This document shows, one piece after another, positions 6,652 through 62,576 of a DNA stretch of 64,000 nt. The first letter of the stretch is position 1. Each line of letters opens with the position of its first letter. Source of the stretch: a virus; IMG/VR virus record IMGVR_UViG_3300035210_000189, positions 88,441-152,440 of that record, one strand, 5' to 3'. The translations under genes were made by a program, and so were the position numbers. Under the pieces are notes generated by a model. That model had not been told where the DNA came from. It saw nothing but the letters and a program-made list of their open reading frames with translations, and made no database searches.

Positions 6652-7434
6652 ATGAAAAATATTATCAAAAACCATTTAAAAAAATTATTTGAAGAGACTT
6701 TTAAACTTCCAGTTCATAAGATCCTTTTCTCTAAAAATAAGTATAATTCTCAAATTTTTGCCGGTAATGTTTATTATGGCGACAATAAAAAATTAAAATA
6801 TAAATTTACGACAACTCCTATCAATGAAGACTCATTTACAACTAAGTTAGTTATTCCAACTGATGATGATTTGTATCAATCTGATTATTTTTCTGGTTTG
6901 ATTGAAAATCATGTCATTTATCAAAAAGTCAGAAGTTGTTATAATTTAAACCATAAGTACAAACAGTTTCGCCTTGATGAATATGAATCTCCTATTGTCA
7001 TCAAGCAGACTGTCAAAAACAACAAAGTCGAAGTTACTCATGATTTTCAATTACATATTTTCTCTGTGAATGGTTTGAATTCAAAGTCTGTTTTAGAAGG
7101 TCAGTTGGACACTAATATTTTTCTTGAATGGACAGATAATAACCTCATTAATGTTCGTGATCCTTATTTGAAACAAAATATTCATTATCCTAACAAGCGA
7201 CGTATCATTGCTTTTCAGGGGCATGGTGATCAAAATATGGAGCAAAATGAAGATACTTACAATTTTATTTTAGATATTATCCATCAAAACTTTATTCACT
7301 TTATCGCTTATCATCAACGTGGCACTGTACCTATTGATGAAATGACAATTGAAGAAGTTTACAAGACAAATCATACGGAATTAAATTATAGATTCATTTC
7401 TGAAAATCTTGTTCGGGATATGGTTTTGATTTAA
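6652..7434 (+). CDS. hypothetical protein with MxxI C-terminal signature
   Basis: 260 aa; ends LVRDMVLI. Confidence 0.7.
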   Translation: MKNIIKNHLKKLFEETFKLPVHKILFSKNKYNSQIFAGNVYYGDNKKLKYKFTTTPINEDSFTTKLVIPTDDDLYQSDYFSGLIENHVIYQKVRSCYNLNHKYKQFRLDEYESPIVIKQTVKNNKVEVTHDFQLHIFSVNGLNSKSVLEGQLDTNIFLEWTDNNLINVRDPYLKQNIHYPNKRRIIAFQGHGDQNMEQNEDTYNFILDIIHQNFIHFIAYHQRGTVPIDEMTIEEVYKTNHTELNYRFISENLVRDMVLI

Positions 7435-7507
7435 TACTGTATTTCGTTGCTTAAATCCAAAAAATACGGTATAATCAGGCTATTAAATTAACTAAGGTCA
7501 TCATATC

Positions 7508-8044
7508 ATGAAAACTAGTCTTCGCCTTCTTCTCTCTGTTTTGGCTATTACATCGACAATGGCTTTTGCAGATACTCCTGTTGAAAAAGGGTTAAGCCTT
7601 GAAAAGTTTAGCTATCAGGGCATTGGTTTTAAAGACAGCAAGACTGACCTCGTTGCTAAACGTTTTGAATGCAATGCAATGTCGTGCAAACGTAAAGAAA
7701 AAGATACCAACATTGATGTTGTGTTTACGGATGATAGAATTCAAATTATTGATGCAAGAACTCGCTATAACAATCACATTGATTGCTCAGTTAATCAGCG
7801 TGAAATTAAAAAGTTTTTGACGGACACCTATAATTTTGAATATCTGAATCAAGACAGCACATTCTTGGGAATGCACATGAGCAGTAATGATGTAGGTGGT
7901 AACATCCCTACCACTAATGGATCAATTTTTGTTAACGTTTCTTGCATGAACGACCCTAAAATCAACATGGGTTATGTGAATACTCGGTTTAATCTCAAAG
8001 ACATTTCAGCTCAGAGCTTCAAGGATTCTTTCAAATATGAATAA
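7508..8044 (+). CDS. secreted hypothetical protein
   Basis: Sec signal peptide ending AFA. Confidence 0.75.
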   Translation: MKTSLRLLLSVLAITSTMAFADTPVEKGLSLEKFSYQGIGFKDSKTDLVAKRFECNAMSCKRKEKDTNIDVVFTDDRIQIIDARTRYNNHIDCSVNQREIKKFLTDTYNFEYLNQDSTFLGMHMSSNDVGGNIPTTNGSIFVNVSCMNDPKINMGYVNTRFNLKDISAQSFKDSFKYE

Positions 8045-8576
8045 AATAAGCAGCAATGGTTCTGTGCATCATCTTATTGATTTGAAATCAAGGGAGGCTA
8101 TGCACCTTTATTACGGTTTAAAGAACAGGTTTGAATATACTGTTGAGAACCGTGAAGAAGTCGTCAAAACCATTGCTGATGACATTCGTGATTTTGTATT
8201 GCAATATGATTTTGTGGTATACCCAGAAAGCAGTGCTTCGTTTATCAGTGATGTGTTGAGTCAGATTGATATTTCAACGTATCAAGTGGTGAAAAACTCT
8301 ATTGAGAACGTCAGAGTGTTTTCAAACACACTTAACCTGCAGAAGAAAGAACGCGAAAGCCATGAAGAACGATTTGCCTTGATGGGGCCAAAGTTCAAAA
8401 TCAACCAGATGAAGTCAACTCAACGTGTTAAATATGAAGAGGTTATTTTTGACAAGCTTGACTTACCAGAAGGTCGAGGGCTTATTGTAGATGATAGCCA
8501 CTTCTCAGGCACTACATACCGAGCGTTGGTAACTGTGACTGGCATTGAAGATTTCTTGGCAATCTTTTCAAAGTGA
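8037..8576 (+). CDS. phosphoribosyltransferase-like protein
   Basis: PRPP-binding-like motif LIVDDSHFSGTT. Confidence 0.65.
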   Translation: MNKISSNGSVHHLIDLKSREAMHLYYGLKNRFEYTVENREEVVKTIADDIRDFVLQYDFVVYPESSASFISDVLSQIDISTYQVVKNSIENVRVFSNTLNLQKKERESHEERFALMGPKFKINQMKSTQRVKYEEVIFDKLDLPEGRGLIVDDSHFSGTTYRALVTVTGIEDFLAIFSK

Positions 8577-8595
8577 CGACAAAACAAAAAGGAGC

Positions 8596-9474
8596 CTAAG
8601 CTCCTTTTATTATTTGATGACGACACAATTGTTTCGAAATTGAATCATAATTCATAACCATTATTCCAATCACCAACATTGGAACACATAATAGTTGACC
8701 TGTTGTTAACCAACCAAAAGCAATATAGCCTAGATTGGCATCGGGTTCTCTAACAAATTCGACTGAAAATCTGAATATCGCATACATGATCATGAACAAT
8801 CCACAAATAGATCCTTTTGTTCTTTCTTTCATCGAATACGCTTTCAATATGAAAAATAAAACAACACCTTCTAATATGGCTTCATAAATTTGTGATGGAT
8901 GTCTTGGTAATGATCCTGCATTTTGAAATACTATTCCAAATGGCCCATCTGTTACCTTCCCCCATAGTTCTCCATTGATAAAGTTGCCTAATCGACCTTC
9001 TGCTAAACCTATGGGAGCTGTTAATGCTATAATGTCCATACATTTCAAAAACTGTATTTTATATTTTCTAGCATAGATCCAGACGCCAATGACTAATCCT
9101 ATTAATCCACCATGAAAAGAGACGCCTCCTTTCCATAAGGCAATAATGTCGATAGGATGACTGAAATAATGTTCCAGTGGATAGCCTTGGTATATGATGA
9201 GATACAAAAGCCTTGCACCAATGATCATACCAAATACGGCATATAGAATAAGCATGTAAGCATCGTCTTCTTTTAATTTATTGTCTATTTTTGATATATC
9301 TTTGACCATTTTTATTCTAGCAATCACGATGGTTGTTAGGAACAAAAGCCCATACCACTTGATACTAACGATTTTAAGATCAATAGCCACTGGATTAATT
9401 GGATAGTTTTTTATAATCAATGTTAAAAATATTCCGAATAGAAATAATATTGCTATATTTGTTTTTGTTATCAT
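8596..9474 (-). CDS. lgt: prolipoprotein diacylglyceryl transferase
   Basis: WYGL, GARL, WKGGVSFHGG, GRLGNFINGELWG, RHPSQIYE. Confidence 0.97.
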   Translation of the reverse strand: MITKTNIAILFLFGIFLTLIIKNYPINPVAIDLKIVSIKWYGLLFLTTIVIARIKMVKDISKIDNKLKEDDAYMLILYAVFGMIIGARLLYLIIYQGYPLEHYFSHPIDIIALWKGGVSFHGGLIGLVIGVWIYARKYKIQFLKCMDIIALTAPIGLAEGRLGNFINGELWGKVTDGPFGIVFQNAGSLPRHPSQIYEAILEGVVLFFILKAYSMKERTKGSICGLFMIMYAIFRFSVEFVREPDANLGYIAFGWLTTGQLLCVPMLVIGIMVMNYDSISKQLCRHQIIKGA

Positions 9475-17236: not shown

Positions 17237-17749
17237 TTATATCACTAACATGTTGGCTAGAGTTAACCTTTGATTGAAATCAACACTGTTGAAATCATAC
17301 ACACCAATAACATCTAGTTCTGGTAGCAGATCTCGAATGTCTTGTCCTTCTGGTTGTTTTGAACGCATATAAATATTTAACAAATTCTTATCAACACTTG
17401 GATAAAAATGACTGGTATATCCATTTCCGTCTCTTACATAATGATAAATGACCTTAGACAGTTCCAAATGATTTTCGTGCTTTACATCAGCATAAAAAAT
17501 CCATAACACGTCACCATTTAACTTGTTGTAAAAAGAAAATCGTAAGCTTTTAAATTTTCCATTATCAAAAAGAGCATCACAGTCCCTAGACATACCATCA
17601 AAAGACAGTTTTAATTTAATGGTATTAAAATTCATTGTTTCTTTTAAAGGCATACCATTAGCATCCTGTTCGCACAGGACTTCAAAATAACCGGGAAGTC
17701 CCCATTTATTTTTATCTTCAAAATCAGTGAGTGTAAATTTTTCGTACAT
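17237..17749 (-). CDS. family-B protein (LPE...YDF...MxxI)
   Basis: Ends LLPELDVIGVYDFNSVDFNQRLTLANMLVI. Confidence 0.75.
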   Translation of the reverse strand: MYEKFTLTDFEDKNKWGLPGYFEVLCEQDANGMPLKETMNFNTIKLKLSFDGMSRDCDALFDNGKFKSLRFSFYNKLNGDVLWIFYADVKHENHLELSKVIYHYVRDGNGYTSHFYPSVDKNLLNIYMRSKQPEGQDIRDLLPELDVIGVYDFNSVDFNQRLTLANMLVI

Positions 17750-18270
17750 TAGATTAATACCATATTAGCGAGGGACACTCGTTGTTTAAAAGATTCACTG
17801 GTAAAGTCATAGACTCCTGTGATGTGTATTTCTGGTAAAAGTTCTTCCATGACTTCTTTATGGCCTGTATGTCTTGCCATTAGCACCTTAATGAGATCTT
17901 CTTCCAAAATAGCTCCTAGTCTATGTCTATCACCTTCATGATGACGCCTTCCTGTTTTACTGTAAACAAAAGACGTTCTCACGAAGTTTAGATCTTGATC
18001 AAAGAGAATGCTGAGATTTTTTGTGAAGTTTTTATTATGAAAAGAAAAGTGAAGTCTTTTAAGTTCAAACTCATCAGAAAATGAAGCACTGCAGACTTCA
18101 TTCAAACCATTAAAAGATAAACCTGTTTTAATATCAAGATTTTTTATTTCTTTATGTTTGGTATAAATATCAAATTTTTCTTTCGCCAATGACACAAGAC
18201 GAATAACCAGTCCCGTTTTATTGACGGTCAGGAAATTTGAAATAACGGGAGCATTTACCATAGATAACAC
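17749..18270 (-). CDS. family-B protein (LPE...YDF...MxxI)
   Basis: Ends LLPEIHITGVYDFTSESFKQRVSLANMVLI. Confidence 0.75.
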   Translation of the reverse strand: MLSMVNAPVISNFLTVNKTGLVIRLVSLAKEKFDIYTKHKEIKNLDIKTGLSFNGLNEVCSASFSDEFELKRLHFSFHNKNFTKNLSILFDQDLNFVRTSFVYSKTGRRHHEGDRHRLGAILEEDLIKVLMARHTGHKEVMEELLPEIHITGVYDFTSESFKQRVSLANMVLI

Positions 18271-19244: not shown

Positions 19245-20243
19245 ATGCATAGCTTCCATTCTCATCACTCTCACGACGAACATGCCCACGACACGGTGAA
19301 CGTGGCAAACCATGATCATTGTCCTAGTCTCCACATTCATGAAATCAATAAGCAAAAATCCAGTGGCCGCAAAAAGCTTGCCATTATTATGGGTATTACC
19401 TTTGCTTTTGCGATTGTTGAAATGATTGGTGGTTGGTTTTCTGGTTCATTGGCTTTGATTTCTGACGCATTCCATATGTTAACCGACTCATCTTCACTGA
19501 TGTTGGCTTTAATTATGGCAATTCTTGCCCAAAAGCCCGCCGATGATAGATATTCCTATGGACATGGACGTTGGGAGATTATCGGGGCATTACTGAATGG
19601 TTTATTCATGATTGCAGTGATTGTCTTCTTGGTCTATGAAGGCATTGAACGTATTATTAATCCAAGGCCCGTTGAATCGACTACCATTATTTGGATTGCT
19701 TCCATTGGATTGGCTATCAATATCTTTGCAGCATGGTTATTGCACTCACACAGCCACTCATTAAACACCCGAGGTGCCTTTCTCCATGTGCTTGGTGATT
19801 TACTGGGTAGCGTTGCCGCTATTGCTGCAGGTGTAATTATTTATTTCACTGGCATGACCGTCTTTGACCCGATTATTTCTATTGTGGTTGCTCTTATTTT
19901 GGTTGTTCCTACTTACAACTTGTTGAAACAAACAGCCAGAATTATCTTAGAAGGCGTGCCAGAACATATTGATTATGTCGAAGTTGGTAAAAATTTGAAT
20001 GAAATTCCTAATGTTATCTCTGTCCATGACCTCCATATTTGGTCTATGACTTCTGAACATATCTCATTGTCTGCACACGTTGAAATTTCTAGCATGAATG
20101 AATGGGAAACAGTATTAGCTGATATTCAATTGATGTTATCTGAGAAGTTTCAGATTAATCACATAACCTTACAACCCGAAGTACATAAAGAAGATTTAGA
20201 AAACAATCATGATGAAGTTGACGAACATCATCACGCTCATTAA
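19245..20243 (+). CDS. cation diffusion facilitator (ZitB/CzcD-type Zn/Co/Cd exporter)
   Basis: SLALISDAFHMLTD, HVLGDLLGS, VHDLHIW, HITLQPE; His-rich termini. Confidence 0.95.
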   Translation: MHSFHSHHSHDEHAHDTVNVANHDHCPSLHIHEINKQKSSGRKKLAIIMGITFAFAIVEMIGGWFSGSLALISDAFHMLTDSSSLMLALIMAILAQKPADDRYSYGHGRWEIIGALLNGLFMIAVIVFLVYEGIERIINPRPVESTTIIWIASIGLAINIFAAWLLHSHSHSLNTRGAFLHVLGDLLGSVAAIAAGVIIYFTGMTVFDPIISIVVALILVVPTYNLLKQTARIILEGVPEHIDYVEVGKNLNEIPNVISVHDLHIWSMTSEHISLSAHVEISSMNEWETVLADIQLMLSEKFQINHITLQPEVHKEDLENNHDEVDEHHHAH

Positions 20244-45287: not shown

Positions 45288-45842
45288 ATGACTAATGTAA
45301 AAAAAGAAACACAAAAAGAATTATCAAAAGCCATTGAGTCGTTGAAAATTACATTGGCGAAAATTCGAACAGGTCGAGCACATCCCAGCTTACTGGATTC
45401 AGTCATTGTTGAACACCAGAATACAAAATCACCACTTAAACAAATGGCAACTATCGTTGTAGAAGACGCTCGCACACTCAAAGTAGTGGCATTTGACCCC
45501 AAATCAGTAGGAGCTATCACAAAGTCTATCTTGAACGCTGGACTAGGCTTAAATCCTTCAAATACTGGCACCAACATTTATGTTCCTCTACCTGCACTGA
45601 CAGAAGAAACACGCAAAATGTATATCAAGCAGTTACGTCAGAATATTGAAAGTGCTCGCATTGTTGTTCGTAATCTTCGTAGAGATGCTTTCACTGCCTA
45701 TAAGAAACAATTGAAGAATAAAGAAATCAACGAAAACGATGAAAAACGATTGAGTAATTCTATTCAGAAAGACGTTGATGAGACGATGGCTATTATTGAT
45801 GGACTATTAACTCAAAAAGAAAAAGAAATCATGGCTATTTAA
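45288..45842 (+). CDS. frr: ribosome recycling factor
   Basis: KIRTGRAHPS, LGLNP, PALTEETRK, VRNLRRDA; 184 aa. Confidence 0.97.
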   Translation: MTNVKKETQKELSKAIESLKITLAKIRTGRAHPSLLDSVIVEHQNTKSPLKQMATIVVEDARTLKVVAFDPKSVGAITKSILNAGLGLNPSNTGTNIYVPLPALTEETRKMYIKQLRQNIESARIVVRNLRRDAFTAYKKQLKNKEINENDEKRLSNSIQKDVDETMAIIDGLLTQKEKEIMAI

Positions 45843-47966: not shown

Positions 47967-48028
47967 TTTATTTTGATTGATATAATCGCTCTATTATGAT
48001 ATTATGTTGCAAATTATTGGAGTGTTTC

Positions 48029-49509: not shown

Positions 49510-50289
49510 ATGAAAACAATCTATGATCGTATGTTAGAAAAAGAAGCTCGTATTTTTAATGAAGAGTTAAATTCTGTCATTATTCCAAAATTAGTTCATT
49601 TACTTAATCAGTTGTGTGATATTGATTTGAATGCAACAGGAACATGTTTTAAGCCTTATATGATCTATACTGGTTCTACCATTTATGATCACAATCTTAA
49701 AATTACTTACAGATGTCAATACTGTGAAGCAAGCGTGTCATTAAAAGATAATAAATTATCCGTATATTTTAGTTTTTTTAAGAAGAATTTAGATCATTAT
49801 AAAACACCTTTAAATGCAGATAGATGTGCTATTGATGTTGACCATCAGTTGAATTTTAAACAAGCTGTTTTTAATTATTATGCAAACTTTTCAAAGTTAA
49901 AAATTGATCGTCACTGTGATGGGCATGTATATAGTTCATTGAATATTGCTCGAACTTTTGATTCAAACTTCAATCAAACCAACACAGTAAGCTATTTGAA
50001 TGGGTTAACGGAAACATCAGATTATATTGATTTAAAGGACTTTGCTTTAAATCCAGTTTTTTTTCAAGCCAATAACCAATTTGATAAATTACTTGTAGAC
50101 GCTACAACCTTTTGCGAGTATAATCCAAAAGAATTCTACAATGTCTTTCCAGAATATCCAACCTATGTTGAGTTCATGACCAACATTGGAAAGGCTACTG
50201 CGTTTTTGAACCTTTTTTACGCACAATACACTGACGATGTTGAAATCTTAACATCACGACTTCTACTATTAGACATGCAGGCGATTTAA
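49510..50289 (+). CDS. family-A array protein 5
   Basis: Ends LLDMQAI. Confidence 0.8.
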   Translation: MKTIYDRMLEKEARIFNEELNSVIIPKLVHLLNQLCDIDLNATGTCFKPYMIYTGSTIYDHNLKITYRCQYCEASVSLKDNKLSVYFSFFKKNLDHYKTPLNADRCAIDVDHQLNFKQAVFNYYANFSKLKIDRHCDGHVYSSLNIARTFDSNFNQTNTVSYLNGLTETSDYIDLKDFALNPVFFQANNQFDKLLVDATTFCEYNPKEFYNVFPEYPTYVEFMTNIGKATAFLNLFYAQYTDDVEILTSRLLLLDMQAI

Positions 50290-50290: not shown

Positions 50291-51046
50291 ATGAAAACAC
50301 TCTACGAACAATTCAGGAAATGTAAATTAGCCCTTAATTCTGATGTCGGTGATAATCCATTAATTTCAAAGAAACTTAAAGTCTTGTTTCATAAAGTTTA
50401 TGGCATTGATATTTCTGATGAATCTATACTGTTTAAAAAAGATATCGGATCTATTGGTCAAGAACTAAGTATTAGTTACAAATTTGAATATGGATCGGTT
50501 GATGTCTCCACTCAACAAGAGCAATTGGTTGTGAAGTTTTATCACAATGACAACTTTAAAGCTCCTTTTAAAGCTAATCGTTCTACTATTTCTGTGGATC
50601 ATGATTTAAATTTTGTTCGTGCTGAATATTGTATGTATTTTGCATTTTTAAACAGCGTTCTCCATAATAATGGTGGTTATGGTGGATACAACCAAATGAA
50701 AATCCAGCGGATTATTGATTTGAACGGTGCTTACAATTCTATCTCCTTCCGACATTCAGATGATGCAGATAGTGATTTATTTATTGATGTTGAACGGAGT
50801 AAGCTGGATGAACGCTTTTTTCAACCAAATACCAATTTAGAAGAAACATTCTATCAATTGATCGACTTTGTTACTGAACACCCACACGAATTTTATGCGA
50901 TATTTGATGGATATCCAAGTTTTTCTAAATGTGTTGACCATTCTGACGGTATTATTGATTTCGTTAATGTTTTTATTCATCAGTATTTTAGTGATAACGA
51001 AAGATTAAAACAAAACATGTTGTTACTTGATATGCAGGCCATATAA
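50291..51046 (+). CDS. family-A array protein 6
   Basis: Ends LLDMQAI. Confidence 0.8.
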   Translation: MKTLYEQFRKCKLALNSDVGDNPLISKKLKVLFHKVYGIDISDESILFKKDIGSIGQELSISYKFEYGSVDVSTQQEQLVVKFYHNDNFKAPFKANRSTISVDHDLNFVRAEYCMYFAFLNSVLHNNGGYGGYNQMKIQRIIDLNGAYNSISFRHSDDADSDLFIDVERSKLDERFFQPNTNLEETFYQLIDFVTEHPHEFYAIFDGYPSFSKCVDHSDGIIDFVNVFIHQYFSDNERLKQNMLLLDMQAI

Positions 51047-51047: not shown

Positions 51048-51812
51048 ATGAAAACCATTTCTGATTATCTTTTTAAATGCAAACGTAATCTGACAACTAA
51101 CTTAGCTACTGATGTCAAACTTCGCATTGCGGTTAAGCTTGAAACATTACTTAACCAGTTTTGTGACATCGAACTTTCAGAAAATTCGCCTTCTTTTACA
51201 CCTAATGGTGGCATGGTAGGTCAAGAGATGGTTTCTTGCTATCAATTTAAATATGGTTCAGCCGATGTATCGACAAAAGATCAAAATCTGGAAGTTACTT
51301 TTTTCTTTAAAGAAAGTAATTTATTAAAAATTCCTTTGGGCACTAGTCGTTGTGTAGTTACTGTAGATCATGATTTAAACTTTAAAAAAGCAACATATTC
51401 ATATTATGTTTGCTTCTCAAAAAGAATTCTAGATTCAGACTACACTGATTTTGAACATTGCAATCTTCTTATTCAAAGGATTGTAGACGCAACTAACTAT
51501 TATAACAATATACTTTATCATAACACTCAATCAAAAGGCAAAGAATATAAGGATTTATTACAACATGGTCTTAATGAACGCTATGTGATTCCAGATTATG
51601 AATTTGAAATGATGTTTAAGAATTTCATTGTGTTTGCATGTACTAAACCATTTGATTTTTACGAAGCTTTTCCTGAGTATCCAAGTTATATGGATTTCAT
51701 TCATAAAATTGATCAGACTGTCGCATTTATGAACTTGTTTAACCAACAATACACAGCAGACCCAATACTGCTTAATCAAAAGATGTTACTTCTTGACATG
51801 CAGGTGATCTAA
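51048..51812 (+). CDS. family-A array protein 7
   Basis: Ends LLDMQVI. Confidence 0.8.
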   Translation: MKTISDYLFKCKRNLTTNLATDVKLRIAVKLETLLNQFCDIELSENSPSFTPNGGMVGQEMVSCYQFKYGSADVSTKDQNLEVTFFFKESNLLKIPLGTSRCVVTVDHDLNFKKATYSYYVCFSKRILDSDYTDFEHCNLLIQRIVDATNYYNNILYHNTQSKGKEYKDLLQHGLNERYVIPDYEFEMMFKNFIVFACTKPFDFYEAFPEYPSYMDFIHKIDQTVAFMNLFNQQYTADPILLNQKMLLLDMQVI

Positions 51813-52613
51813 TTGACAACTATTTATGATCACCTATTTTTATGCAATAAACTGAATGGCTTTAACAGTTCCCTCAATGATCAAATTATGTCTAAATTGG
51901 TTGTTTTGCTAGAACAGGTTTGTAATGTGGATTTGTCTGATGAACCAGCACTCTTTTTTCAAAATATAGCTAGTTTTGGAAAGGATGTTAGTATTGAATA
52001 TAAGTCCAAGTATGGGACGGCATCGTTATACACTAACAATAAAATGTTGGAAGTCATTTTTCTATTCACTCTAAAAGCATGTGATTCCCTATACATTCCA
52101 TTTAAATCAACTATTTGCGAAGTTAAAGTGGATAATGACTTAAATTTTAAGCAGGCAACTTTTAATTTTTTTGTTAACTTTTCTCACAACAACATCGAAC
52201 TTAAAGTCAATCCAAATAAATATGTTGGAACGGTATTGGTTACTAATCCTAAGTATTCAGCTATTCATATTAAACGTATCATTGATGAACATAGAATTAG
52301 TTCTAATATTATTACTTATAATAATTTTAAATGTAACAGTGGAGAATATATTAATTTAGGTAATATTGAGCTAAATAACCAATACTTTATACCAGACAAT
52401 GATTTTGAAAATTTATTTGTTAAATTCATTTTACTTTGTTCGAACAAACCAAAACAATTTTATACTGTTTTCATTGATTATCCTAGTTATCAAAATATTA
52501 TTGATCATAAAAAACATGCGGTTGAACTATTAAACCTATTCAGTGAACAGTATTTTAATAATTTTGAAACTTTGCAATCAAATATGCTACTAATTGATAT
52601 GGTGGAAATTTAA
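51813..52613 (+). CDS. family-A array protein 8
   Basis: TTG start abutting the previous stop; ends LIDMVEI. Confidence 0.8.
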   Translation: MTTIYDHLFLCNKLNGFNSSLNDQIMSKLVVLLEQVCNVDLSDEPALFFQNIASFGKDVSIEYKSKYGTASLYTNNKMLEVIFLFTLKACDSLYIPFKSTICEVKVDNDLNFKQATFNFFVNFSHNNIELKVNPNKYVGTVLVTNPKYSAIHIKRIIDEHRISSNIITYNNFKCNSGEYINLGNIELNNQYFIPDNDFENLFVKFILLCSNKPKQFYTVFIDYPSYQNIIDHKKHAVELLNLFSEQYFNNFETLQSNMLLIDMVEI

Positions 52614-52614: not shown

Positions 52615-53382
52615 ATGACGAATATTTATGAGGCGATGGTACACTTTAAAAAGACAAACGAACCTAACTGGGGTATGACGCCTTTGGTTAGCTCTAAACT
52701 TGCTTCATTGCTTCGACAGGCAACTGGCATAGAACTGCATGGTGATGAACCTCATTTTACTAATAACATTAGCGTATGTGGTTTGGAAGTGGCTATGGAT
52801 TACTTCTTTAAATATGGATCAGCCACTTTGAGTTTGAAAGATAATGAGTTGGAAGTAGGTTTTTACTTTGTTCGTAAAGATGACAATGCTTATCAACTTC
52901 CATTTAATGCTAAACAATGTAGAGTTTATCTTGATCGTGATTTTAATTTTAAATTCGCTGTTTTTAATTATAAAGTTAATTTTTTAAAATCTCTTTTAAA
53001 TAATCACAACCAAAGTTCTGTGTATGCTTCCATTAAGATTCAAAAAATTATTGAGCAGGATTCAACAACAAGAACTACTGTTGAATATCAAAACCTTCTC
53101 TCTAATGTAAAAGAACATACTTCGCTTCATGATAAAGGTCTGGATACCCATTTCTTTAATGCTGATGTTAAATTTGAATCGTTTTTAGCTAAATTCATGG
53201 ATTCTTGTGCCACACGACCATATCAGTTCTATGAATTATTTCCAGAATATCCAAACTATATTGATTTCATGGAAAAAATGCACAAAGCTGTTGAATTTTT
53301 AAACCTATTTAACTCCCAATACATTAATCAGTTTGATGTGTTAGAATCTAAACTTCTTTTACTTGAAATGCAGGCTATCTGA
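52615..53382 (+). CDS. family-A array protein 9
   Basis: Ends LLEMQAI. Confidence 0.8.
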   Translation: MTNIYEAMVHFKKTNEPNWGMTPLVSSKLASLLRQATGIELHGDEPHFTNNISVCGLEVAMDYFFKYGSATLSLKDNELEVGFYFVRKDDNAYQLPFNAKQCRVYLDRDFNFKFAVFNYKVNFLKSLLNNHNQSSVYASIKIQKIIEQDSTTRTTVEYQNLLSNVKEHTSLHDKGLDTHFFNADVKFESFLAKFMDSCATRPYQFYELFPEYPNYIDFMEKMHKAVEFLNLFNSQYINQFDVLESKLLLLEMQAI

Positions 53383-53383: not shown

Positions 53384-54160
53384 ATGTCTACAATACTGGA
53401 AAATATTGCAACATTAAAAAACAATCATTTTCCTGATGAGCTTAACGCCGTTATTCTCGCTAAGCTAACAATATTATTAAATATTACTTTTGGCTCTGCC
53501 TTATCCAGTGCTGGTAATGTTTCTTATCGTGAAATGGTAACTTATAATGACAATGACCAGATAGATATTTCATATAACTTTGAGTTTGGCGTTGCCTTCA
53601 TTTCTTTTTTTCGACCACTTAATCAACTCACTGTTTCCTTTTGTTGTTCTGTTAATATTGATAACTTATATCATAAAGATCTTAATTATTGTTTAACCGT
53701 TGATCCTAATCTTAATTTCGAGACGTTCTCTTTTGATAGATTCTTTGAGTTTTCGAGAGAACATAATGATAAACGTAAATATACATCTGTATGGTCAAAC
53801 TTGCTATTTGATATTAAAATGGATAATTTTTTAAATGTTAGCAAGAACTTTCTATATCGTAACGAAGAGATGTATACAATAGATGAAGATGATAAACAAA
53901 ATCTTTTTGATCATGGTTTGAATCCAGTGTTTTATCTTTCCAGTCGGCACTTTGATGAACTATTATTAAAGTTCTTAAATTATTGTATGAGAAATAAAAA
54001 AGATTTTTACTCTATATTTCCACACTATCCGACACAGATAAATTGTATGGAATCACTCAACAAAACAGTAGAGTTTTTAAATGTTTTTTGTGAAGAATAT
54101 ACAGACAATTTGTTAATTTTGGAGTATAATATTCTACTACTTGATATTCAGGCGATTTGA
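53384..54160 (+). CDS. family-A array protein 10
   Basis: Ends LLDIQAI. Confidence 0.8.
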   Translation: MSTILENIATLKNNHFPDELNAVILAKLTILLNITFGSALSSAGNVSYREMVTYNDNDQIDISYNFEFGVAFISFFRPLNQLTVSFCCSVNIDNLYHKDLNYCLTVDPNLNFETFSFDRFFEFSREHNDKRKYTSVWSNLLFDIKMDNFLNVSKNFLYRNEEMYTIDEDDKQNLFDHGLNPVFYLSSRHFDELLLKFLNYCMRNKKDFYSIFPHYPTQINCMESLNKTVEFLNVFCEEYTDNLLILEYNILLLDIQAI

Positions 54161-54161: not shown

Positions 54162-54920
54162 ATGACGACACTTTATGAACAATTTAATGCAGTTCGAACA
54201 GCTCAGAAGAACTGGCTGTATGAACCGGACGTTCAACAAAAACTTATTGATATCTTTAAGATTATTTGTGATATTGATCTGTCTAATGAAACGACACCAT
54301 TTAAACCTGATGGCGGTTCTTTTGGTATGGAAATTGTTTATAACTATAAGTTTAAATATGGCAGAGTCTATGTTCAAACTGAGAAAAAAGAAATGCAGGT
54401 TATGTTTATTTTTGATGACCCCTATGATCTGACCATTCCATTTAGTCGTTCTTCAAGTTCACACCGTTGTACTGTCAAAGTCGATCACGACTTAAATTTT
54501 GTAGAAGGTCGATTTGGGTTTTATACATCTTTTTCAAATAGAACTCTAGATAGAGATGTTTCTGGATTTCTTATCCTCTGTTTTGAACGAGTCATTAATA
54601 GTAAACAATCATTTAATAGCATTGCTTATAGTCCTGATATGCTATCAGATAACTATCTAGATTTAATTCCACATCATCTTCATAAAAATTATTTAATTCC
54701 TAACATTGATTTTGAACAAGTATTCATGGAGTTCATGACTTTTTGTTCAGAGAATCCAGAAGACTTTTATAATGTGTTTGTTGAATATCCAAACTATGAA
54801 CAAATTATTAGTAATGTTGATAATTTTGTTCTTTTCTTAAACTTATTTAACCAACAATACATCGAAAACTCAGCACTTTTACAATCACGTATTTTGTTGT
54901 TAAACATGCAGACAATTTAA
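54162..54920 (+). CDS. family-A array protein 11
   Basis: Ends LLNMQTI. Confidence 0.8.
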   Translation: MTTLYEQFNAVRTAQKNWLYEPDVQQKLIDIFKIICDIDLSNETTPFKPDGGSFGMEIVYNYKFKYGRVYVQTEKKEMQVMFIFDDPYDLTIPFSRSSSSHRCTVKVDHDLNFVEGRFGFYTSFSNRTLDRDVSGFLILCFERVINSKQSFNSIAYSPDMLSDNYLDLIPHHLHKNYLIPNIDFEQVFMEFMTFCSENPEDFYNVFVEYPNYEQIISNVDNFVLFLNLFNQQYIENSALLQSRILLLNMQTI

Positions 54921-55001: not shown

Positions 55002-55820
55002 ATGTTAGAACGTATATTTAAAGCAAAAGATGATTTCGATAAAGCCACTCTGTTAAAAGTCTCGGTTGATGATTATAAACCTAAGATCACTTTCTTTACA
55101 GGCTCTGGCATATCTCAGGAGAGCGGTTTAGAAACATTCAGGGCGGATGATGGTTTGTGGAGCAATCATCGTGTGGATGAAGTTGCAACGGCTCACGCCC
55201 TTCAAAAAGACTTTAAAAAGGTTAACAACTTTTTCAATGATCGACGTAAAGAAGTGATGGCCGCTCAACCTAATCGTTCTCATGAGATATTGAAAGAACT
55301 TGAAAAGTATTTTCATGTTGTCGTTGTCACTCAGAACGTTGATGACTTGCATGAGCGTGCTGGCAGTTCGTGTATCTATCATTTGCATGGCGAAATCATG
55401 CGTTCACGACCAGTTGGTAATGCCAAAGTATTCTATGACCAAAAGAAAGACATTAAACTGGGTGATAAGTGTATGTTGACCAAAGCACAAATTAGACCTC
55501 ATATTGTTTTGTTTGATGAAATGTTAGATGACAGTATTTTGTCTGACGCCAGAAAGCATATTAGAGAATCGGATGTCTTTGTTGTGGTTGGTAGTAGTCT
55601 TCAAGTTGAACCTGCCGCTTCATTGGTGGTAGAAGGCTTTGGTCTGAGGGATTTTATTTTGGTTGACCCAAGCACTGTCTTCATGAAATACAATGCTAAC
55701 TATGTGCATGTGAAAGAAAAAGCGACTGTGGGTTTGGAAATGATGTTACCGCAGTTGATTATTAAAGCCGACCAGATGAAAACTCAGTTTAAAGAAAATA
55801 AAGAAAGATTGAAAGTATAG
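55002..55820 (+). CDS. Sir2/CobB-family NAD-dependent protein deacylase
   Basis: TGSGISQESG..TFR; TQNVDDLHERAGS; HLHGE; RPHIVLF; GSSLQV. Confidence 0.93.
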   Translation: MLERIFKAKDDFDKATLLKVSVDDYKPKITFFTGSGISQESGLETFRADDGLWSNHRVDEVATAHALQKDFKKVNNFFNDRRKEVMAAQPNRSHEILKELEKYFHVVVVTQNVDDLHERAGSSCIYHLHGEIMRSRPVGNAKVFYDQKKDIKLGDKCMLTKAQIRPHIVLFDEMLDDSILSDARKHIRESDVFVVVGSSLQVEPAASLVVEGFGLRDFILVDPSTVFMKYNANYVHVKEKATVGLEMMLPQLIIKADQMKTQFKENKERLKV

Positions 55821-55873: not shown

Positions 55874-56677
55874 ATGACAACGATTTATGACAAACTTTTA
55901 GTATTAACAAATAAAATTGTCGATATGGATGATCTAATTTTCAAGCTTGATAATGAGTTAGATTTAGAGATAACTTCAAATTTGATTACTTTATTAAATC
56001 TCTCCTGTGGCATTGACTTGTCACAGGTAGAATCTGCATTTAGCGACCACAGATTATCATTTGATGAGTTTAATGATTTAGAGATTTCTTATAAGTTTCC
56101 GTATGGCAATTCTTTTATTAGTGTAAACACAACATCTAAATCATTGGACGTGTCATTTTCTTTTTCAAATGAAGTTCCTATAAAATTATACAAAAATAAT
56201 GTGTGTTATCTTAATGTTGATCATAACATGCAGTTTGAAAAATGTGCATTTAAAAGAGTTATTCAATATTCTAAATCTACTGTCGGCCAACCATTTTCTC
56301 TGCCAGTTTGGGGTGTTTTAATCATCTATACTTCTATTGACAAAGATTTAAACAAAATGCATAAGTTACATTATCAAAACAACAAATTGTATTCAGTGGA
56401 CGAAAACAATTTGATCAATTTATTTGATCAAAATATTAATCATTTTTTTAAATCACCACCTAATGAGTTCGATGAATTGTTATTTAGTTTTTTTAACTTT
56501 AACAGTCTCCATTCTGTCGAATTCTATGAGGTATTTCCTGATTATCCAGATTACAACAATCTAATGAAATCAGTTGATTACCTTATTCAATTTTTAAATT
56601 TGTTTTTTACACAATATACTACTGATAAACATCTATTACATCGTAAAATAGAATTGCTTGAAATGAGATTAATTTAA
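55874..56677 (+). CDS. family-A array protein 12
   Basis: Ends LLEMRLI. Confidence 0.8.
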   Translation: MTTIYDKLLVLTNKIVDMDDLIFKLDNELDLEITSNLITLLNLSCGIDLSQVESAFSDHRLSFDEFNDLEISYKFPYGNSFISVNTTSKSLDVSFSFSNEVPIKLYKNNVCYLNVDHNMQFEKCAFKRVIQYSKSTVGQPFSLPVWGVLIIYTSIDKDLNKMHKLHYQNNKLYSVDENNLINLFDQNINHFFKSPPNEFDELLFSFFNFNSLHSVEFYEVFPDYPDYNNLMKSVDYLIQFLNLFFTQYTTDKHLLHRKIELLEMRLI

Positions 56678-56678: not shown

Positions 56679-57389
56679 ATGGATACTATTTACAATGAGA
56701 TCTTGAAGAGGAAAACGACCAGAAGCTTAGGGGACGACTTGACTTCGGCTATTAGTTTGAAATTAGTTAAACTTTTAAAAGCTTCCTGTAATATTGATTT
56801 ATCTGGTATAGAAGTGCCTTTTCAACAAACTGCTATTATTGATTTATCAGAGCTTAGTTGGCCGTTATTTGGTATTGCTCCTGATGGCACATTTTACATA
56901 ACTTTTCATTTTATTCATGGAGTGGTATCGCTACACCTTTATCCAGATAAACAAAGTTTAACATTGTCATTTGGCTTTAAGTATGATCATTTAGATTTTA
57001 TCCTTCCTAGTAATTCAAAATCTTGTAATGTAACGATAGATAACAATATGAATTTTATTGATTGCAATTTTGAAGTTGGTTTTTTATTTTCAACTGTGAC
57101 TTTAAATAATATTGAATCCAAAAGAATATTTGACATGGATTTTATCAATCCAGAAGATGTTCATAAAATAGAGGATGAAACAGATAGTCTTAATGAAATT
57201 ATCTATTATAATTATTTACATACATTAACGTCATATGAATTAGATCCATTATTGATAAATCATGATTTGTTAGTTCAATCAATTTTCACTAAATTAATGG
57301 GGTTACATTCAAAATATCCACATATTTGTTATTCAGGATTTGAAAATCACCTAACATTAAGGAACTATTTAAATGATAACAATTCATGA
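56679..57389 (+). CDS. family-A array protein 13, lacking the C-terminal module
   Basis: Family N-terminus present; ends NYLNDNNS and overlaps the next gene. Confidence 0.7.
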   Translation: MDTIYNEILKRKTTRSLGDDLTSAISLKLVKLLKASCNIDLSGIEVPFQQTAIIDLSELSWPLFGIAPDGTFYITFHFIHGVVSLHLYPDKQSLTLSFGFKYDHLDFILPSNSKSCNVTIDNNMNFIDCNFEVGFLFSTVTLNNIESKRIFDMDFINPEDVHKIEDETDSLNEIIYYNYLHTLTSYELDPLLINHDLLVQSIFTKLMGLHSKYPHICYSGFENHLTLRNYLNDNNS

Positions 57390-58116
57390 TTCCATGATGA
57401 AATTACAATACTTGGATAACCTTGATATTGGTTCATTATTTTATCCAAAATTTATTTTTTTACTCAAACAAGTATTTGACATTGATTTGACGAACGAACT
57501 CAATCCATTTCAGGAAGTTTCTCAAATGATTGGTAGTAATATTGATATTTGCTATCTATTTAAATATGGAAGCATTCTTGTATCTGCTCACAAAGAAAAC
57601 ACTGCTATTGGTGTATATATCACTATTACTGATAGTGTTATTAGTAATAAAATGCCTTACAAATCCACATCTTGCAGTTTAAAACTTGATCATGATATGA
57701 ATTTTATATGGGCATCTTTTGATATTAGTCTGGAATTTTCACGTTCGTACAATGATGAGTATAGCTTATTACAAATCAGAAATGTATTAAGTCCATCATC
57801 TCGTATTGTTAAAACATTCACTTATTCCAATCAAACGCAGTATTCAGTTTCAAAAGATTTGAAATCTTTTGGACTTAGTTCCAACTTTTTTACAGCCAAT
57901 AAAGAATTTGATGATTGCTTAATCGACTTCTTAACGTGCTGTTCAGTGACACCAAAACAATTTTATGACGAATTCACCGAATACCCCAACTATGATACGT
58001 TGATATCAACGGTTGAAGGCACTGTACAATTATTGTCTATATTTAACAAGCAATATATAGATGATAAAGATTTATTGAAATCACGATTGTTATTGACTGA
58101 AATGTGTTTGATTTAA
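57373..58116 (+). CDS. family-A array protein 14
   Basis: Ends LLTEMCLI. Confidence 0.8.
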   Translation: MITIHDSMMKLQYLDNLDIGSLFYPKFIFLLKQVFDIDLTNELNPFQEVSQMIGSNIDICYLFKYGSILVSAHKENTAIGVYITITDSVISNKMPYKSTSCSLKLDHDMNFIWASFDISLEFSRSYNDEYSLLQIRNVLSPSSRIVKTFTYSNQTQYSVSKDLKSFGLSSNFFTANKEFDDCLIDFLTCCSVTPKQFYDEFTEYPNYDTLISTVEGTVQLLSIFNKQYIDDKDLLKSRLLLTEMCLI

Positions 58117-58171: not shown

Positions 58172-59275
58172 TTGTTTAATTTCTTCAAAAAATTCCGACA
58201 AAAAAACAAACTACGTGGTTTCTTGTGTGGAACCCACTCTGTTACTGTGTCACAAGTTGAAATTGAGTTTGGTAGAGTTATTACTTATTCCTGTTCTTTT
58301 TTGGATTACATCATTTCTTTTGATTACAATGATTATGCTGGTGTCATTAATCAGTTAGGTGTGAGCACTATATCTTACAAAAACACCGTTATTTGCAAAG
58401 AGCACCACAATTTAACGATTAGTGGGCTAACACCAGAAGATTATTTGAAAAAATATTTTCAAAAAGCAATTGATTACTCTCAGAAATTAGATATAAATCA
58501 TTTGAATATCATCTTGCCATTTTTTGAAACAAAAGCCTTTCATTACACTAAAAGCCTTGAAATTGGATTAGAATCTACTTATCCGCAAGGTTGTATTTAC
58601 AATGTAGCCTTAATGCAGGAAAAAGCACCTTATAACGCCTATCTTAATAGCCATTGTAATAAAGGTTGGACTAAATTTAAAATAGTCACCTACAATGATA
58701 CGGTTTTTAATTGTTTATACACCAATGAGTTTGGTTATCTGTTAAGACAAAATCAAATACAAATTTCTCAAATAGAAACAATATCAGCTCAAATTAGTAC
58801 CCTGCTTGATAACAGTAAACTCACGTTGGAAACTTACGAGCGTGATGCTGACAAAGTTTTCTTTAATGAAGAAAAAAAGACAGCCTTGTTATACCGAGTT
58901 ATCAATTCAGAAAAGGATTATCACGGATCTCATATGGACGCGGTTGATGAATTGTATAATTACACTTCATTACATCTATTCTGGGTGGTTGATTTTACGC
59001 ATAAAACTACGACACTTAATATTTTTGAGTATGCGTATGATGACCATACATTCATTAAAGAACACATTCATTCAATGGAAACTAGGTTTCTAGCGGAAAT
59101 GCTTGATTTAGCTTATTATGAAGACTTCTTTAACAAAACTGTTGATAAGTTAATACATTGTCATTATCCCAGCAGAAAGCTTATTGAGCTTTTGGATAGT
59201 GCAATAGATCTCGATGGTTTTGATGGTACGCTGACAGAAGAACAATACAATTTGTTTAAAATGATGACAATTTGA
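58172..59275 (+). CDS. family-C protein
   Basis: TTG start with AAGGAG; ends FDGTLTEEQYNLFKMMTI. Confidence 0.75.
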   Translation: MFNFFKKFRQKNKLRGFLCGTHSVTVSQVEIEFGRVITYSCSFLDYIISFDYNDYAGVINQLGVSTISYKNTVICKEHHNLTISGLTPEDYLKKYFQKAIDYSQKLDINHLNIILPFFETKAFHYTKSLEIGLESTYPQGCIYNVALMQEKAPYNAYLNSHCNKGWTKFKIVTYNDTVFNCLYTNEFGYLLRQNQIQISQIETISAQISTLLDNSKLTLETYERDADKVFFNEEKKTALLYRVINSEKDYHGSHMDAVDELYNYTSLHLFWVVDFTHKTTTLNIFEYAYDDHTFIKEHIHSMETRFLAEMLDLAYYEDFFNKTVDKLIHCHYPSRKLIELLDSAIDLDGFDGTLTEEQYNLFKMMTI

Positions 59276-59352: not shown

Positions 59353-60390
59353 TTGTTTAATCTATTTAAGTTTTTAAAAAACAATAAAAATACACCTTTT
59401 AAAGTGAATGGTGTTCGAGTTTCTGTCATAGTCACTCCAGCCATTTCATGTCAGCATATTAAATACGTTGCTTATCTGAGTGGTTTTGAAATTGTTTTTG
59501 AGTATTATGACTACTTGTATATAGTTAATAAAATAGGCCGCTGTCAGATACTATTAAACAATGTGGTTATTCATCAAGAACCTTATAATATCACCTTATC
59601 GAAACTAGATCCTAATAAATATATAAAACAGTGTTTTAAAAGACTAATTCATCATGTTAATCAATTAGATCATTTGAAATTAGCTAAGATTACTCCAATT
59701 TTTAACGTTGATATTTTTAACTATATAAGCAGTATTTCAATCCATACAATTCGAAAATTTAGAAATGTTGATATTTATCATCTGTCATTAACTCAGAAAA
59801 ATGATATTGAGATTCCCTATAATCTTCGATACAATGCTAGGGATTTAAATAACATTGAAATTGTTGCTTTTTCTGACACTCCTTTTTGTCATCTGATGTC
59901 TCGGGATAAATCTTCTCCTAAATTTATTGAGGCTAGCAACGCTATTTATGATAATAACCGTATTAGAAACCATCCAGAAAAGTATTCGTCTTTCAAACTG
60001 GGAGATAATTTTAAGAATTCTTTATATAATGCGACTTTAAATGAAGCTCTTGTGTATGTTGTGTTTAAAGACTCGCTTAGTTATTCCAACAATAAGATTG
60101 TTTTACATTTTTTTTGGCATGTTTCCTTTGCCACGCAAGCTGTTAATGTGGTTACTTTTATTTTTGATGATGAAAAATTCGTTGGTGAATGCAGTGAACC
60201 CATAGAATCAAGATTCATCGAGAACGATATTGATCTTGATTATTATAAGAACTTCCTTGAAATTTTTGTCGAAAAATTATTGCTTATTTATTTCCCTACA
60301 CAGAATCTGGCTGATTTTCTTAGTATCCCTGATTTTAATGGACGACTAACCGAAGAACAGTACAGTGTTTTTTCGATGTATAGCATTTAA
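59353..60390 (+). CDS. family-C protein
   Basis: Paralog of 58172; ends FNGRLTEEQYSVFSMYSI. Confidence 0.75.
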   Translation: MFNLFKFLKNNKNTPFKVNGVRVSVIVTPAISCQHIKYVAYLSGFEIVFEYYDYLYIVNKIGRCQILLNNVVIHQEPYNITLSKLDPNKYIKQCFKRLIHHVNQLDHLKLAKITPIFNVDIFNYISSISIHTIRKFRNVDIYHLSLTQKNDIEIPYNLRYNARDLNNIEIVAFSDTPFCHLMSRDKSSPKFIEASNAIYDNNRIRNHPEKYSSFKLGDNFKNSLYNATLNEALVYVVFKDSLSYSNNKIVLHFFWHVSFATQAVNVVTFIFDDEKFVGECSEPIESRFIENDIDLDYYKNFLEIFVEKLLLIYFPTQNLADFLSIPDFNGRLTEEQYSVFSMYSI

Positions 60391-60889: not shown

Positions 60890-61045
60890 CATGGAATCAA
60901 CGAACCACAATTGGGTGGTCAATCGTCTCCTAGGCTGTAACTGCCTGCCGTTCTCAATCTGGTAAAAATTATGTTTCAAAGGCTTTCCCACCTTATGCAC
61001 TCTAATCAGTCGCATACCAAAGGTAACGAGAACAACTGACCAAAC
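60890..61045 (+). ncRNA. structured 5' leader or small RNA
   Basis: Follows TATAAT at about 60880; TGGTCA/TGACCA, GTTCTC/GAGAAC and AGGC/GCCT pairings. Confidence 0.4.
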
Positions 61046-61072
61046 ATGCACACTACTTATTGGAGATCTATT

Positions 61073-61459
61073 ATGTTCTATAACTACGCTCAGTTTAAAA
61101 AAGCAACCAAAATTCTGCTCGAAGAGATGAAAGCTGAACCATTTAAATTATCTGGACTTCGTTTGCGTCTTGTTCAATTGATGGGTTTCAGCACGGTTGA
61201 AGCGTATGAAGCAACTTTTAATCGTGAAGCTCCAAAGACGATTACAGTTGTCACTATTGCACCTCAAATGAATGTTTTCAAGAAGGATTTTACGGCTAAT
61301 GATGAAGGCCAGAAGAAGGCAGAATCCTATTTTGTTGAAAAAATTCTTGAAGTCGAACCAGACATGGATCAAAGTGAGATTGAATGCTTTCTTGATGATG
61401 GCTTCTACGCCAAAGGTCATACGGAATATCAGTTCCATATCGTTCATAACGACGATTAA
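61073..61459 (+). CDS. hypothetical protein
   Basis: GGAG SD; terminator follows. Confidence 0.7.
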   Translation: MFYNYAQFKKATKILLEEMKAEPFKLSGLRLRLVQLMGFSTVEAYEATFNREAPKTITVVTIAPQMNVFKKDFTANDEGQKKAESYFVEKILEVEPDMDQSEIECFLDDGFYAKGHTEYQFHIVHNDD

Positions 61460-61535
61460 TTAACTTCGTCATATAAACGTTTCAAATTAAAAAGAACTGC
61501 CTCGAAACAGTTCTTTTTTTGTATTTTTGTATATG

Positions 61536-62576
61536 TCAAATGAACATTGCTTCAACAACTAACAATTCATTACCTGTTAATGGGCCTTCCAATGCAAACC
61601 CTAATTCTTCTCTGGTTTTTAAACTCACGCATTCCTTACACATTTCAGACAGCCACCATTTCTGAATACTTTCATTTTCAATGAAATGGCTTTTTAACAG
61701 TGTATACACATCAATCTTCGTAAGCATATCAGAAGCTTCCAACATAAGTATTTTTTGAAATTTTGCGTTGTCGTGCATAATTCTAGAAAATGAGAATTTT
61801 GACATATCGGCATCTACAAGGTTCTTAAAAACAATCATGTTTGTTTTTGGATTATCTTGGTCATACTCCTGAGCCTTCAAATAAAAGAATGTTTTGTCAT
61901 TAAAATTGACCTCCATAACACTTTCTTTCTGCAGCGATTCGTCATCAATGTATGTTAACCAAAACGTGTAAGATTCTTCAAAATCAATACCGCTGCCATT
62001 AAAATTAAATTCTAATGGTTTAATTCCGGTTTCTAGCATTTGGTATAAATGTTCACCAATAATTTTAATATTAGTTACTTGCATCTTTCCATCCTGCATT
62101 AAATGATAAGTGTCTTTTAATTTTTCATGAGGGTTAATCATGAAAAAGCCTTTATCATAACTGATATTTATAATTTTATTTATGTGAAACCCTATTCTGG
62201 TTAATGCTTTTCTGTCCATTTCTTTGTACATAGCTAATTGATTATCAAATTCAGATAGGAGTTTAATAATCGACATGTATTGTTGTCCATTTGATAGCAT
62301 TTTTGAATCGTAAACTTTCCCATAGACCATGAAATCGTCAATAAAAATCATGTGTATAATTTCTTCTTGATTGACGAACAAACAATCTTTGAATTCTTTT
62401 TCATTTTCTTTTTTGAATATGAGGTAAGAGCATTTAGCATTAACCTTATTTTCGATCATTCCAATATCTTTAAGGTATGACTCCTTAAAAAATTCTGGTG
62501 GCACGCTCACATAACCTACATCATCCAACGTCAGAGAATTAGGTTTTATGATGGCGTTGATTAATGTTGTTAACAT
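61536..62576 (-). CDS. hypothetical protein with family-C-like C-terminus
   Basis: GAGG SD; ends LEGPLTGNELLVVEAMFI. Confidence 0.75.
   Translation of the reverse strand: MLTTLINAIIKPNSLTLDDVGYVSVPPEFFKESYLKDIGMIENKVNAKCSYLIFKKENEKEFKDCLFVNQEEIIHMIFIDDFMVYGKVYDSKMLSNGQQYMSIIKLLSEFDNQLAMYKEMDRKALTRIGFHINKIINISYDKGFFMINPHEKLKDTYHLMQDGKMQVTNIKIIGEHLYQMLETGIKPLEFNFNGSGIDFEESYTFWLTYIDDESLQKESVMEVNFNDKTFFYLKAQEYDQDNPKTNMIVFKNLVDADMSKFSFSRIMHDNAKFQKILMLEASDMLTKIDVYTLLKSHFIENESIQKWWLSEMCKECVSLKTREELGFALEGPLTGNELLVVEAMFI

Follow-up and report, generated by a model that had tools for sequence, protein, structure and literature searches.

Many proteins encoded in the last 64 kb of the 152,440-bp IMG/VR record IMGVR_UViG_3300035210_000189 (positions 88,441 to 152,440, a stretch of 64,000 nucleotides called the window below) end in one and the same short peptide at the extreme carboxy-terminus. 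This peptide, the tag, reads D(-11) x h(-9) x [L/V](-7) [I/L/V](-6) [E/D](-5) M(-4) h(-3) x(-2) [I/Y](-1)-COOH, with h for a hydrophobic residue, and is longer than the pattern L-x-x-h-x-M-x-x-I/L/V first proposed in a preliminary description of the window. Our preferred interpretation, held tentatively and at somewhat less than even confidence, is that the carriers form a hyper-expanded superfamily of paralogs whose terminal helix docks on a shared partner.

The tag occurs far more often than chance would allow. A translation of all open reading frames (ORFs) of the window, which belongs to a record classed in IMG/VR as a provirus, yields 21 with Met at position -4 and I, L, V or C as the last residue: 12 in family A, six in family B, two in family C and the orphan at 6652. 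Two more have variant tails (…DIQAI at 53384-54160 and …EAMFI at 61536-62576 on the minus strand), which confirms, with correct coordinates, the roughly 23 tagged ORFs counted in the preliminary description. Over the whole record, ends of the form M-x-x-[ILVCY] are found in 39 of the 240 non-overlapping ORFs of at least 60 residues, where the internal frequency of the pattern predicts 1.6, and a stricter seven-residue pattern is observed 32 times against 0.19 expected. A sister record of 192,830 bp, collinear with this one and with a DNA identity of 82-93% in the aligned blocks, has the tag on 55 of its 292 ORFs. Counted by BLAST-level families of at least 150 residues in these two records, 25 of 143 are tagged, against about one expected. 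Beyond the window, the tag is found across the whole record, in the sister record and in a more distant relative with 31% guanine plus cytosine (GC) content (L040), whose A-like and B-like proteins still end in it. A further tagged gene, ending …EVLRMIKI, lies beyond the IMG/VR 'provirus' border. The carriers in the window and the genes interspersed in the family A array are the following:

6652-7434, plus strand: orphan (tagged singleton), 260 residues, ends …NLVRDMVLI, no Pfam or NCBIfam match
17237-17749, minus strand: family B, 170 residues, ends …LTLANMLVI
17749-18261, minus strand: family B, 170 residues, ends …VSLANMVLI
30691-31443, plus strand: family B, 250 residues, ends …LNVLSMLIL
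31459-32163, plus strand: family B, the modelled member, 234 residues, ends …LTLFEMSLI, homologs on a 1.85-Mb contig
32178-32798, plus strand: family B, 206 residues, ends …LKVYSMLTL
42964-43602, plus strand: family B, 212 residues, ends …LKLFDMIIC
46348-47157, plus strand: family A, member 1, 269 residues, ends …LLLLDMVNV
47187-47966, plus strand: family A, 259 residues, ends …LLLLEMQAI
47996-48760, plus strand: family A, 254 residues, ends …IALLDMQAI
48762-49508, plus strand: family A, 248 residues, ends …MLLIDMQAI
49510-50289, plus strand: family A, the modelled member, 259 residues, ends …LLLLDMQAI
50291-51046, plus strand: family A, 251 residues, ends …MLLLDMQAI
51048-51812, plus strand: family A, 254 residues, ends …MLLLDMQVI
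51888-52613, plus strand: family A, 241 residues from the first ATG, ends …MLLIDMVEI
52615-53382, plus strand: family A, 255 residues, ends …LLLLEMQAI
53384-54160, plus strand: family A with variant tail, ends …LLLDIQAI, Ile replacing Met(-4)
54162-54920, plus strand: family A, 252 residues, ends …ILLLNMQTI
55002-55820, plus strand: untagged CobB-like sirtuin within the family A array, Pfam SIR2 match at an expectation value (E) of 4e-37
55874-56677, plus strand: family A, 267 residues, ends …IELLEMRLI
56679-57389, plus strand: tail-less family A paralog, 236 residues, ends …LNDNNS, the last ~32 residues (terminal helix and tag) absent by alignment
57373-58116, plus strand: family A, 247 residues, ends …LLLTEMCLI
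58172-59275, plus strand: family C, 367 residues from a TTG start, ends …YNLFKMMTI
59353-60390, plus strand: family C, 345 residues from a TTG start, ends …YSVFSMYSI
61536-62576, minus strand: protein of family C length with a register-shifted tail, ends …LLVVEAMFI

The register-shifted protein has an ortholog in the sister record that ends …LLLIEAMVI, and the tail-less family A form of 236 residues is retained in relatives (P0169 and the gene at 17179-17889 of contig L006).

Motif statistics were compiled with one representative for each of the 25 tagged families, which removes the bias from paralogs. Because only positions -4 and -1 served to select the tagged set, the preferences at all other positions are independent evidence. 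Aspartate stands at -11 in 13 of the 25 families, and position -5 is acidic in 16 and hydrophobic in a single one (0.04). The hydrophobic fraction rises to 0.76 at -9, 0.80 at -7, 0.76 at -6 and 0.88 at -3, whereas in untagged proteins it stays flat across the tail at 0.35-0.46. When the rest of the pattern is held fixed, Met occupies -4 in 75 of 93 matches, compared with a 3% background of Met; nearly all cases with another residue are chance matches in unrelated proteins, and swaps to Leu or Ile are almost absent. The distance to the end is equally strict. Among 52 full-length representatives of family A at 50% identity, 49 stop exactly three residues past the Met, which bears out the earlier claim that the free carboxy-terminus is part of the pattern.

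This conservation acts on the protein and not on the DNA, since the Leu, Ile and Val codons of the tail vary synonymously and all three stop codons (TAA, TGA and TAG) are in use. The same variation rules out a signal at the DNA level such as a promoter, a ribosome-binding site or a coupling of gene ends.

Behind the constant tail the bodies vary. Identity within families amounts to 0.28-0.67 for the tail and 0.28-0.35 for the body, and tails of different families still share 0.26 identity compared with 0.06 for random 12-mers. Tagged bodies span 164-401 residues, and two members of family B are devoid of several strands and have kept the tail. The arrangement first described, one constant tail on variable bodies, thus holds in both sequence and size spread. 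A '(P/x)EY' motif that had also been pointed out is real in family A (EYPSY) and family B (LPEY or LPEL), but it generalizes poorly, with the strict form in 6 of 25 tagged and 6 of 116 untagged families.

Sequence searches place the carriers next to nothing that is known. Ten proteins compared with Pfam and NCBIfam gave no relevant match, 48 tagged proteins compared with Pfam (E < 0.01) gave only three rows at chance level, and these 48 had no matches in PHROGs and none in PADLOC. Profiles of families A and B matched no PDB sequence at E < 0.5. Among 1.84 billion proteins, family A amounts to only 65 clusters when grouped at 50% identity, and the literature searched contains no description of the tag or of a carrier family.

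How could a tail be more constant than the proteins that carry it? In the docking interpretation, the carriers would make up one lineage-specific superfamily with at least 55 copies in ~200 kb, spread over 25 BLAST-level families. They would be mostly cytoplasmic proteins of typically 210-300 residues without a known domain, each probably with a helix at the N-terminus, followed by a long antiparallel beta-meander and a helical region at the C-terminus. The bodies, which appear to diverge fast and often stand in tandem arrays, would offer variable binding surfaces. An N-capped helix of 10-11 residues at the exact carboxy-terminus would be the sole element kept in all families and act as a constant handle, whose side chains at -7, -6, -4, -3 and -1 may enter a hydrophobic pocket of one partner. 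Met(-4) would be the key residue, and the free end would take part in recognition. That the helix docks in trans and that the bodies serve in binding is what we infer.

Several lines of evidence lead us to favour docking. The Met is nearly invariant at a site where Leu or Ile would serve structurally; about 90 diverged proteins terminate at the identical residue; bodies from 164 to 401 residues bear the same tail; and relatives have kept a paralog without it. By a crude test, tagged proteins also seldom resemble secreted or membrane proteins. In addition, the tail stays outside a predicted dimer interface. A homodimer model of family A reached an interaction prediction score from aligned errors (ipSAE) of 0.42, with 0.00 for the best control; 20 of 30 proteins solved as one-chain pairs attain this mark, as does 1 of 23 whose solved structure is a single chain. 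Its runs agree in at least 93% of contacts, with a predicted local distance difference test (pLDDT) score of at least 83 for the partner. The interface is built by residues 3-27, 48-65, 76-83 and 112-114 and includes none of residues 226-259; the symmetric contacts join the conserved MxTIY head and the edge strand 51-55. The model supports a putative pairing of family A through its N-terminal head and first strand, which would explain why this head is conserved.

Other observations weigh against docking, and they are best discussed together with the main alternative. This alternative is purely structural: the carriers would share one diverged fold, and the tag would be its last core helix, packed on the beta-sheet of the same chain without any shared partner, with burial of the terminal carboxylate or of the last side chain as the reason why the exact end is kept. 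We consider this possible, though somewhat less probable than docking. The points that count against docking begin with the bodies. Family-to-family comparisons of profiles built on shallow alignments gave nothing significant, but a deep family A profile of 76 sequences with the tail removed runs collinear with family D over 179 columns (E 5.6e-4) and matches the central hairpin of family B over 29 columns (E 9.4e-4), with none of 26 untagged control families below 0.05. At the level of sequence profiles, at least A, B and D are therefore remote homologs, and because of this the conserved terminal helix could merely belong to their fold. Other families merge in pairs (T6-T22 at 1e-9, T2-T3, T14-T15 and T9-T13), leaving about 19 groups without links in the shallow alignments. 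Tail-trimmed tagged bodies also score slightly higher with one another than with untagged ones (median 13.8 versus 12.8, p = 4e-5).

The predicted structures, which cover one member each of families A and B and thus two of the 25 families, point in the same direction. The AlphaFold2 model of the family A protein at 49510-50289 (mean pLDDT 89.8) has a helix at 18-36, eight antiparallel strands between 48 and 164 and helices at 189-257, and the tag forms the end of a confident 32-residue helix (226-257, pLDDT 94-98, falling to 77 at the end). The model of the family B protein at 31459-32163 (mean pLDDT 84.1) has a helix at 27-52, about ten strands between 56 and 177, short helices and a loop, after which the tag follows as a separate last helix (220-233). 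Both are thus predicted to share a layout of N-terminal helix, antiparallel beta-meander and C-terminal helices with the tag as the last helix, in agreement with a purely structural role. Five of the last seven residues in family A are hydrophobic, and such a strongly hydrophobic tail suggests packing on the body, at least at rest. Finally, no candidate for the partner is apparent in the four related IMG/VR records of 152-193 kb.

The structural alternative in turn has difficulties. Core sites usually allow exchange among Met, Leu and Ile, yet the Met is kept in proteins whose bodies have diverged beyond BLAST recognition. The tail alone is conserved across all 25 families, and several genomes retain the paralog that stops short of the last helix. 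The terminal helix is the part of lowest confidence in the family B model (pLDDT 64-76).

These results also change how the system was first seen. It had been described as several families with dissimilar N-termini and a variable body, a view that the common predicted layout of A and B and the match of the A profile to D and B do not support. The preliminary description had itself named full-length homology of the carriers, with the tail buried as an ordinary core helix, as the finding that would speak against it; given the common A/B layout and the A-D and A-B profile matches, the homology half of this applies to A, B and D. Its proposal of an adaptor or cargo set docking on one partner survives in part: the constant, locked tail, the near-invariant Met and the tail-less paralog fit, but the bodies are not unrelated.

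Searches by shape do not attach the two models to any known fold. Foldseek found no match at E 0.001 or better in PDB and BFVD, a shape search of the ESM Atlas stayed at template modelling (TM) scores of 0.40 or below, and an Atlas feature search with family B reached scores of at most 0.80, to viral clusters without names. The best VIA-align hits (Z 6.1 for A and 6.0 for B) reflect only the general beta-meander shape; the weak lists of both models have 11 entries in common, all with Z of 6.1 or less, a further small point for a common fold. A comparison with p32/MAM33 showed a similar topology, but the best gC1qR match is weak (Z 4.4, root-mean-square deviation 3.6 over 78 residues), PF02330 (p32/MAM33) has no match among the tagged proteins, and these have a median isoelectric point of 5.5, thus are not strongly acidic.

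Constant terminal elements on variable proteins are known from several systems. The ClpX-binding tail of SspB, the targeting peptides of encapsulins and microcompartments, and the XVIPCD of Xanthomonas type IV effectors are terminal docking elements with a single reader. By analogy, the tag would resemble them in combining variable bodies with one constant terminal element; it differs in that there is no sequence resemblance and that the bodies here are at least partly homologous. The microcompartment shell gene PF00936 was not found in the four fragment records; encapsulin, ClpX and VirD4 were not searched for.

An arrangement of this kind also raises the idea of a C-terminal degron, through which the tail would hand its carriers to one protease or unfoldase of the ClpXP, Lon or HslUV type and give them a short, co-ordinated lifetime. 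ClpX signals of the ssrA-like and MuA-like kind are free hydrophobic C-terminal peptides on otherwise different proteins, and the carriers appear to be cytoplasmic: by a crude test, 8 of 93 tagged proteins have a signal-peptide-like start, compared with 56 of 223 untagged ones. Against a degron, the tail is predicted to be helical and attached to the fold and not to be an exposed disordered end, no gene for an AAA+ protease was seen in the island, and to our knowledge the tag matches no known degron. We regard this explanation as improbable.

A likeness in sequence leads to a different hub, the sliding clamp. As a tether similar to PCNA-interacting protein (PIP) boxes, the tail would bind a phage-type clamp in the way the RB69 polymerase tail binds gp45. 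The end of RB69 gp43, …SLFDMFDF, agrees with the tag residue for residue, since it can be written h(-7) h(-6) D(-5) M(-4) h(-3) x(-2) h(-1), and the 11-residue C-terminal peptide of this polymerase occupies a hydrophobic crevice of gp45 (PMC2705854). The T4/RB69 gp43 tail and PIP-box ligands thus share with the tag an extreme C-terminal h-h-acidic-Met-h-x-h peptide, and the gp43 tail, short and hydrophobic, likewise fits into a pocket on its hub (PMC2705854). The phage-like genes of the island, among them two RNA ligases, HNH endonucleases and tRNAs, would suit such a setting. Unlike the gp43 tail, however, the tag sits on more than 55 proteins without known function instead of replication or transcription factors, and it is predicted to be helical and continuous with the fold. 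A clamp with more than 55 clients of unassigned function would be unprecedented, and a likeness over seven hydrophobic and acidic residues may arise by chance. Neither a gp45-type clamp nor a beta-clamp nor a family B polymerase was found in the four records (PF02916 and PF00712 are absent save for one 18-bit PF02916 row inside a family A gene), though this is no proof of absence because the records are fragments. Taken together, a clamp tether appears the least probable of the explanations, very improbable overall.

Where do these genes reside? Homologs lie on the JGI contigs Ga0308423_1259934 (1,851,360 bp) and Ga0370506_000001 (1,917,244 bp), and the four IMG/VR records are collinear pieces of such 1.85-1.92 Mb contigs with bacterial flanks. 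Immediately beyond the IMG/VR borders there is an AcrB-type resistance-nodulation-division (RND) pump operon, 60% identical to enterobacterial pumps, along with genes for HMG-CoA reductase, UbiA and a phosphoenolpyruvate-utilising enzyme. Translation signals are bacterial: Shine-Dalgarno motifs precede 51% of starts with a peak at -9 to -14, compared with a background of 5%, which rules out a giant virus of eukaryotes. Among the untagged genes of the record are those for two RNA ligases, HNH endonucleases, TnpB, methyltransferases and a few tRNAs, and for a T4-type RNA ligase there is a 44% match in Ralstonia phage RsoM2USA. A tblastn search of family A in 50,697 phage records gave zero matches, and this result together with the position of the records inside bacterial-flanked contigs rules out a free jumbo phage. 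The record further encodes a tryptophanyl-tRNA synthetase (TrpRS), ribosome recycling factor (RRF), Lgt, signal peptidase I and a cation-efflux protein. With 69% identity to Acinetobacter enzymes, the TrpRS places the lineage only loosely, and two scans of GTDB species genomes found no close relative. We read the setting as a phage-like, orphan-gene-rich island of ~200 kb in a ~1.9-Mb chromosome of an uncultured gammaproteobacterium.

Such a host brings secretion into view. The carriers could be the effector arsenal of a host-associated gammaproteobacterium, with the helix read as an export or translocation signal by a machine that secretes in one step, for instance a type I ABC exporter or the coupling complex of a type IV system. 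In line with this idea, the element lies in chromosome-sized contigs of roughly 34% GC with bacterial flanks, tagged genes run past the 'provirus' border, Sec signals are rare among the carriers by the crude test, and the tail is acidic at -11 and -5 with a hydrophobic end. Type I protease signals likewise have an acidic residue followed by hydrophobic residues at the end. Dot/Icm (type IVB) signals are C-terminal, with a Glu-rich block that is read by DotM (PMC5802825). Those of Legionella and Coxiella resemble the tag in having acidic residues before a hydrophobic end, and their effectors resemble the carriers as hundreds of lineage-specific proteins in a gammaproteobacterium (PMC5802825, PMC3052360). 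Yet in known type IV and type I systems the signals are degenerate and mostly unstructured, whereas the tag is a sharp, position-locked helix on a folded domain. Dot/Icm signals have no invariant residue, whereas Met(-4) and Ile(-1) are near-invariant here, and in place of a degenerate, disordered tail of 20-35 residues with a Glu-rich block there is a locked and predicted helical one with acidic residues concentrated at -11 and -5. No secretion-system genes were seen in the island DNA that was read, which consists of fragments of the 1.9-Mb contigs. Export seems unlikely to us, and overall we favour docking, followed in order of probability by a structural role, export, a degron and a clamp tether.

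The neighbourhood of the carriers holds further genes of note. The sirtuin within the family A array occupies the same place in the related contig L006 and could be a candidate partner or a co-regulated enzyme. On both sides of the family B gene at 42964-43602 stand untagged paralogs of ~165 residues (42461-42961 and 43669-44163), which may represent a recurrent companion gene. The genes for TrpRS (40030-41025), RRF (45288-45842), Lgt (8596-9474) and a cation-diffusion transporter (19245-20243) are scattered among orphan genes outside their normal operon contexts. A TrpRS 67% identical to that of the window is found on an ENA scaffold of 1,691,479 bp (L038), in an orphan-rich region of 25% GC with TnpB; none of its neighbours is tagged, and the scaffold may belong to a related lineage without the tag system.

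Conserved ends are not restricted to the carriers. Three tandem paralogs of ~170 residues (25779-27456) end in …(K/Q)KPV-h-h-h-COOH (KKPVINI, QKPVLII and KKPVVVV), by sequence a second position-locked terminal motif in the island. Another set of BLAST-related paralogs consists of 3531-4214, 5662-6387 and L005:37-600(-), two of which begin with a signal-peptide-like hydrophobic stretch. Three untagged proteins of the record have matches to the 'protease' family phrog_9683, and we would guess that these are this trio, an ortholog of which in a related contig has a faint trypsin-like match. Two proteins of 785 and 963 residues with signal peptides (L001:3867-6224(-) and L001:7570-10461(-)) match the 'virion structural protein' family phrog_2155 (E 1e-23 and 3.5e-20) over ~140 residues only.

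Lineage-specific expansions with a constant terminal motif are a known kind of system; the instance, the motif and the setting described here are new. Even on the plain interpretation, a superfamily without known relatives makes up about one-fifth of the gene content of a ~200-kb island, and its host lineage is absent from the GTDB species representatives. What IMG/VR classes as a 'provirus' of this type belongs to a chromosome-sized replicon of 1.9 Mb, which alters how its odd genes are to be read. A bolder proposal, which we put forward with considerable doubt, is that the helix is an undescribed address label that loads more than 50 binders onto one machine, with the free carboxy-terminus and the invariant Met as its code. 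As the machine one may think of a protease, a scaffold or an apparatus for export or injection, and its user could be the gammaproteobacterium or the phage-derived island. If the tail is indeed a docking code, it would constitute a new short terminal motif and a pointer to a hub protein, and the carriers would form a natural library of more than 50 binding modules in rapid evolution, all of which report to this one hub. Such a layout would suggest an arms-race system of effectors, inhibitors or sensors, and the tail would provide a portable tag for protein targeting in that organism.

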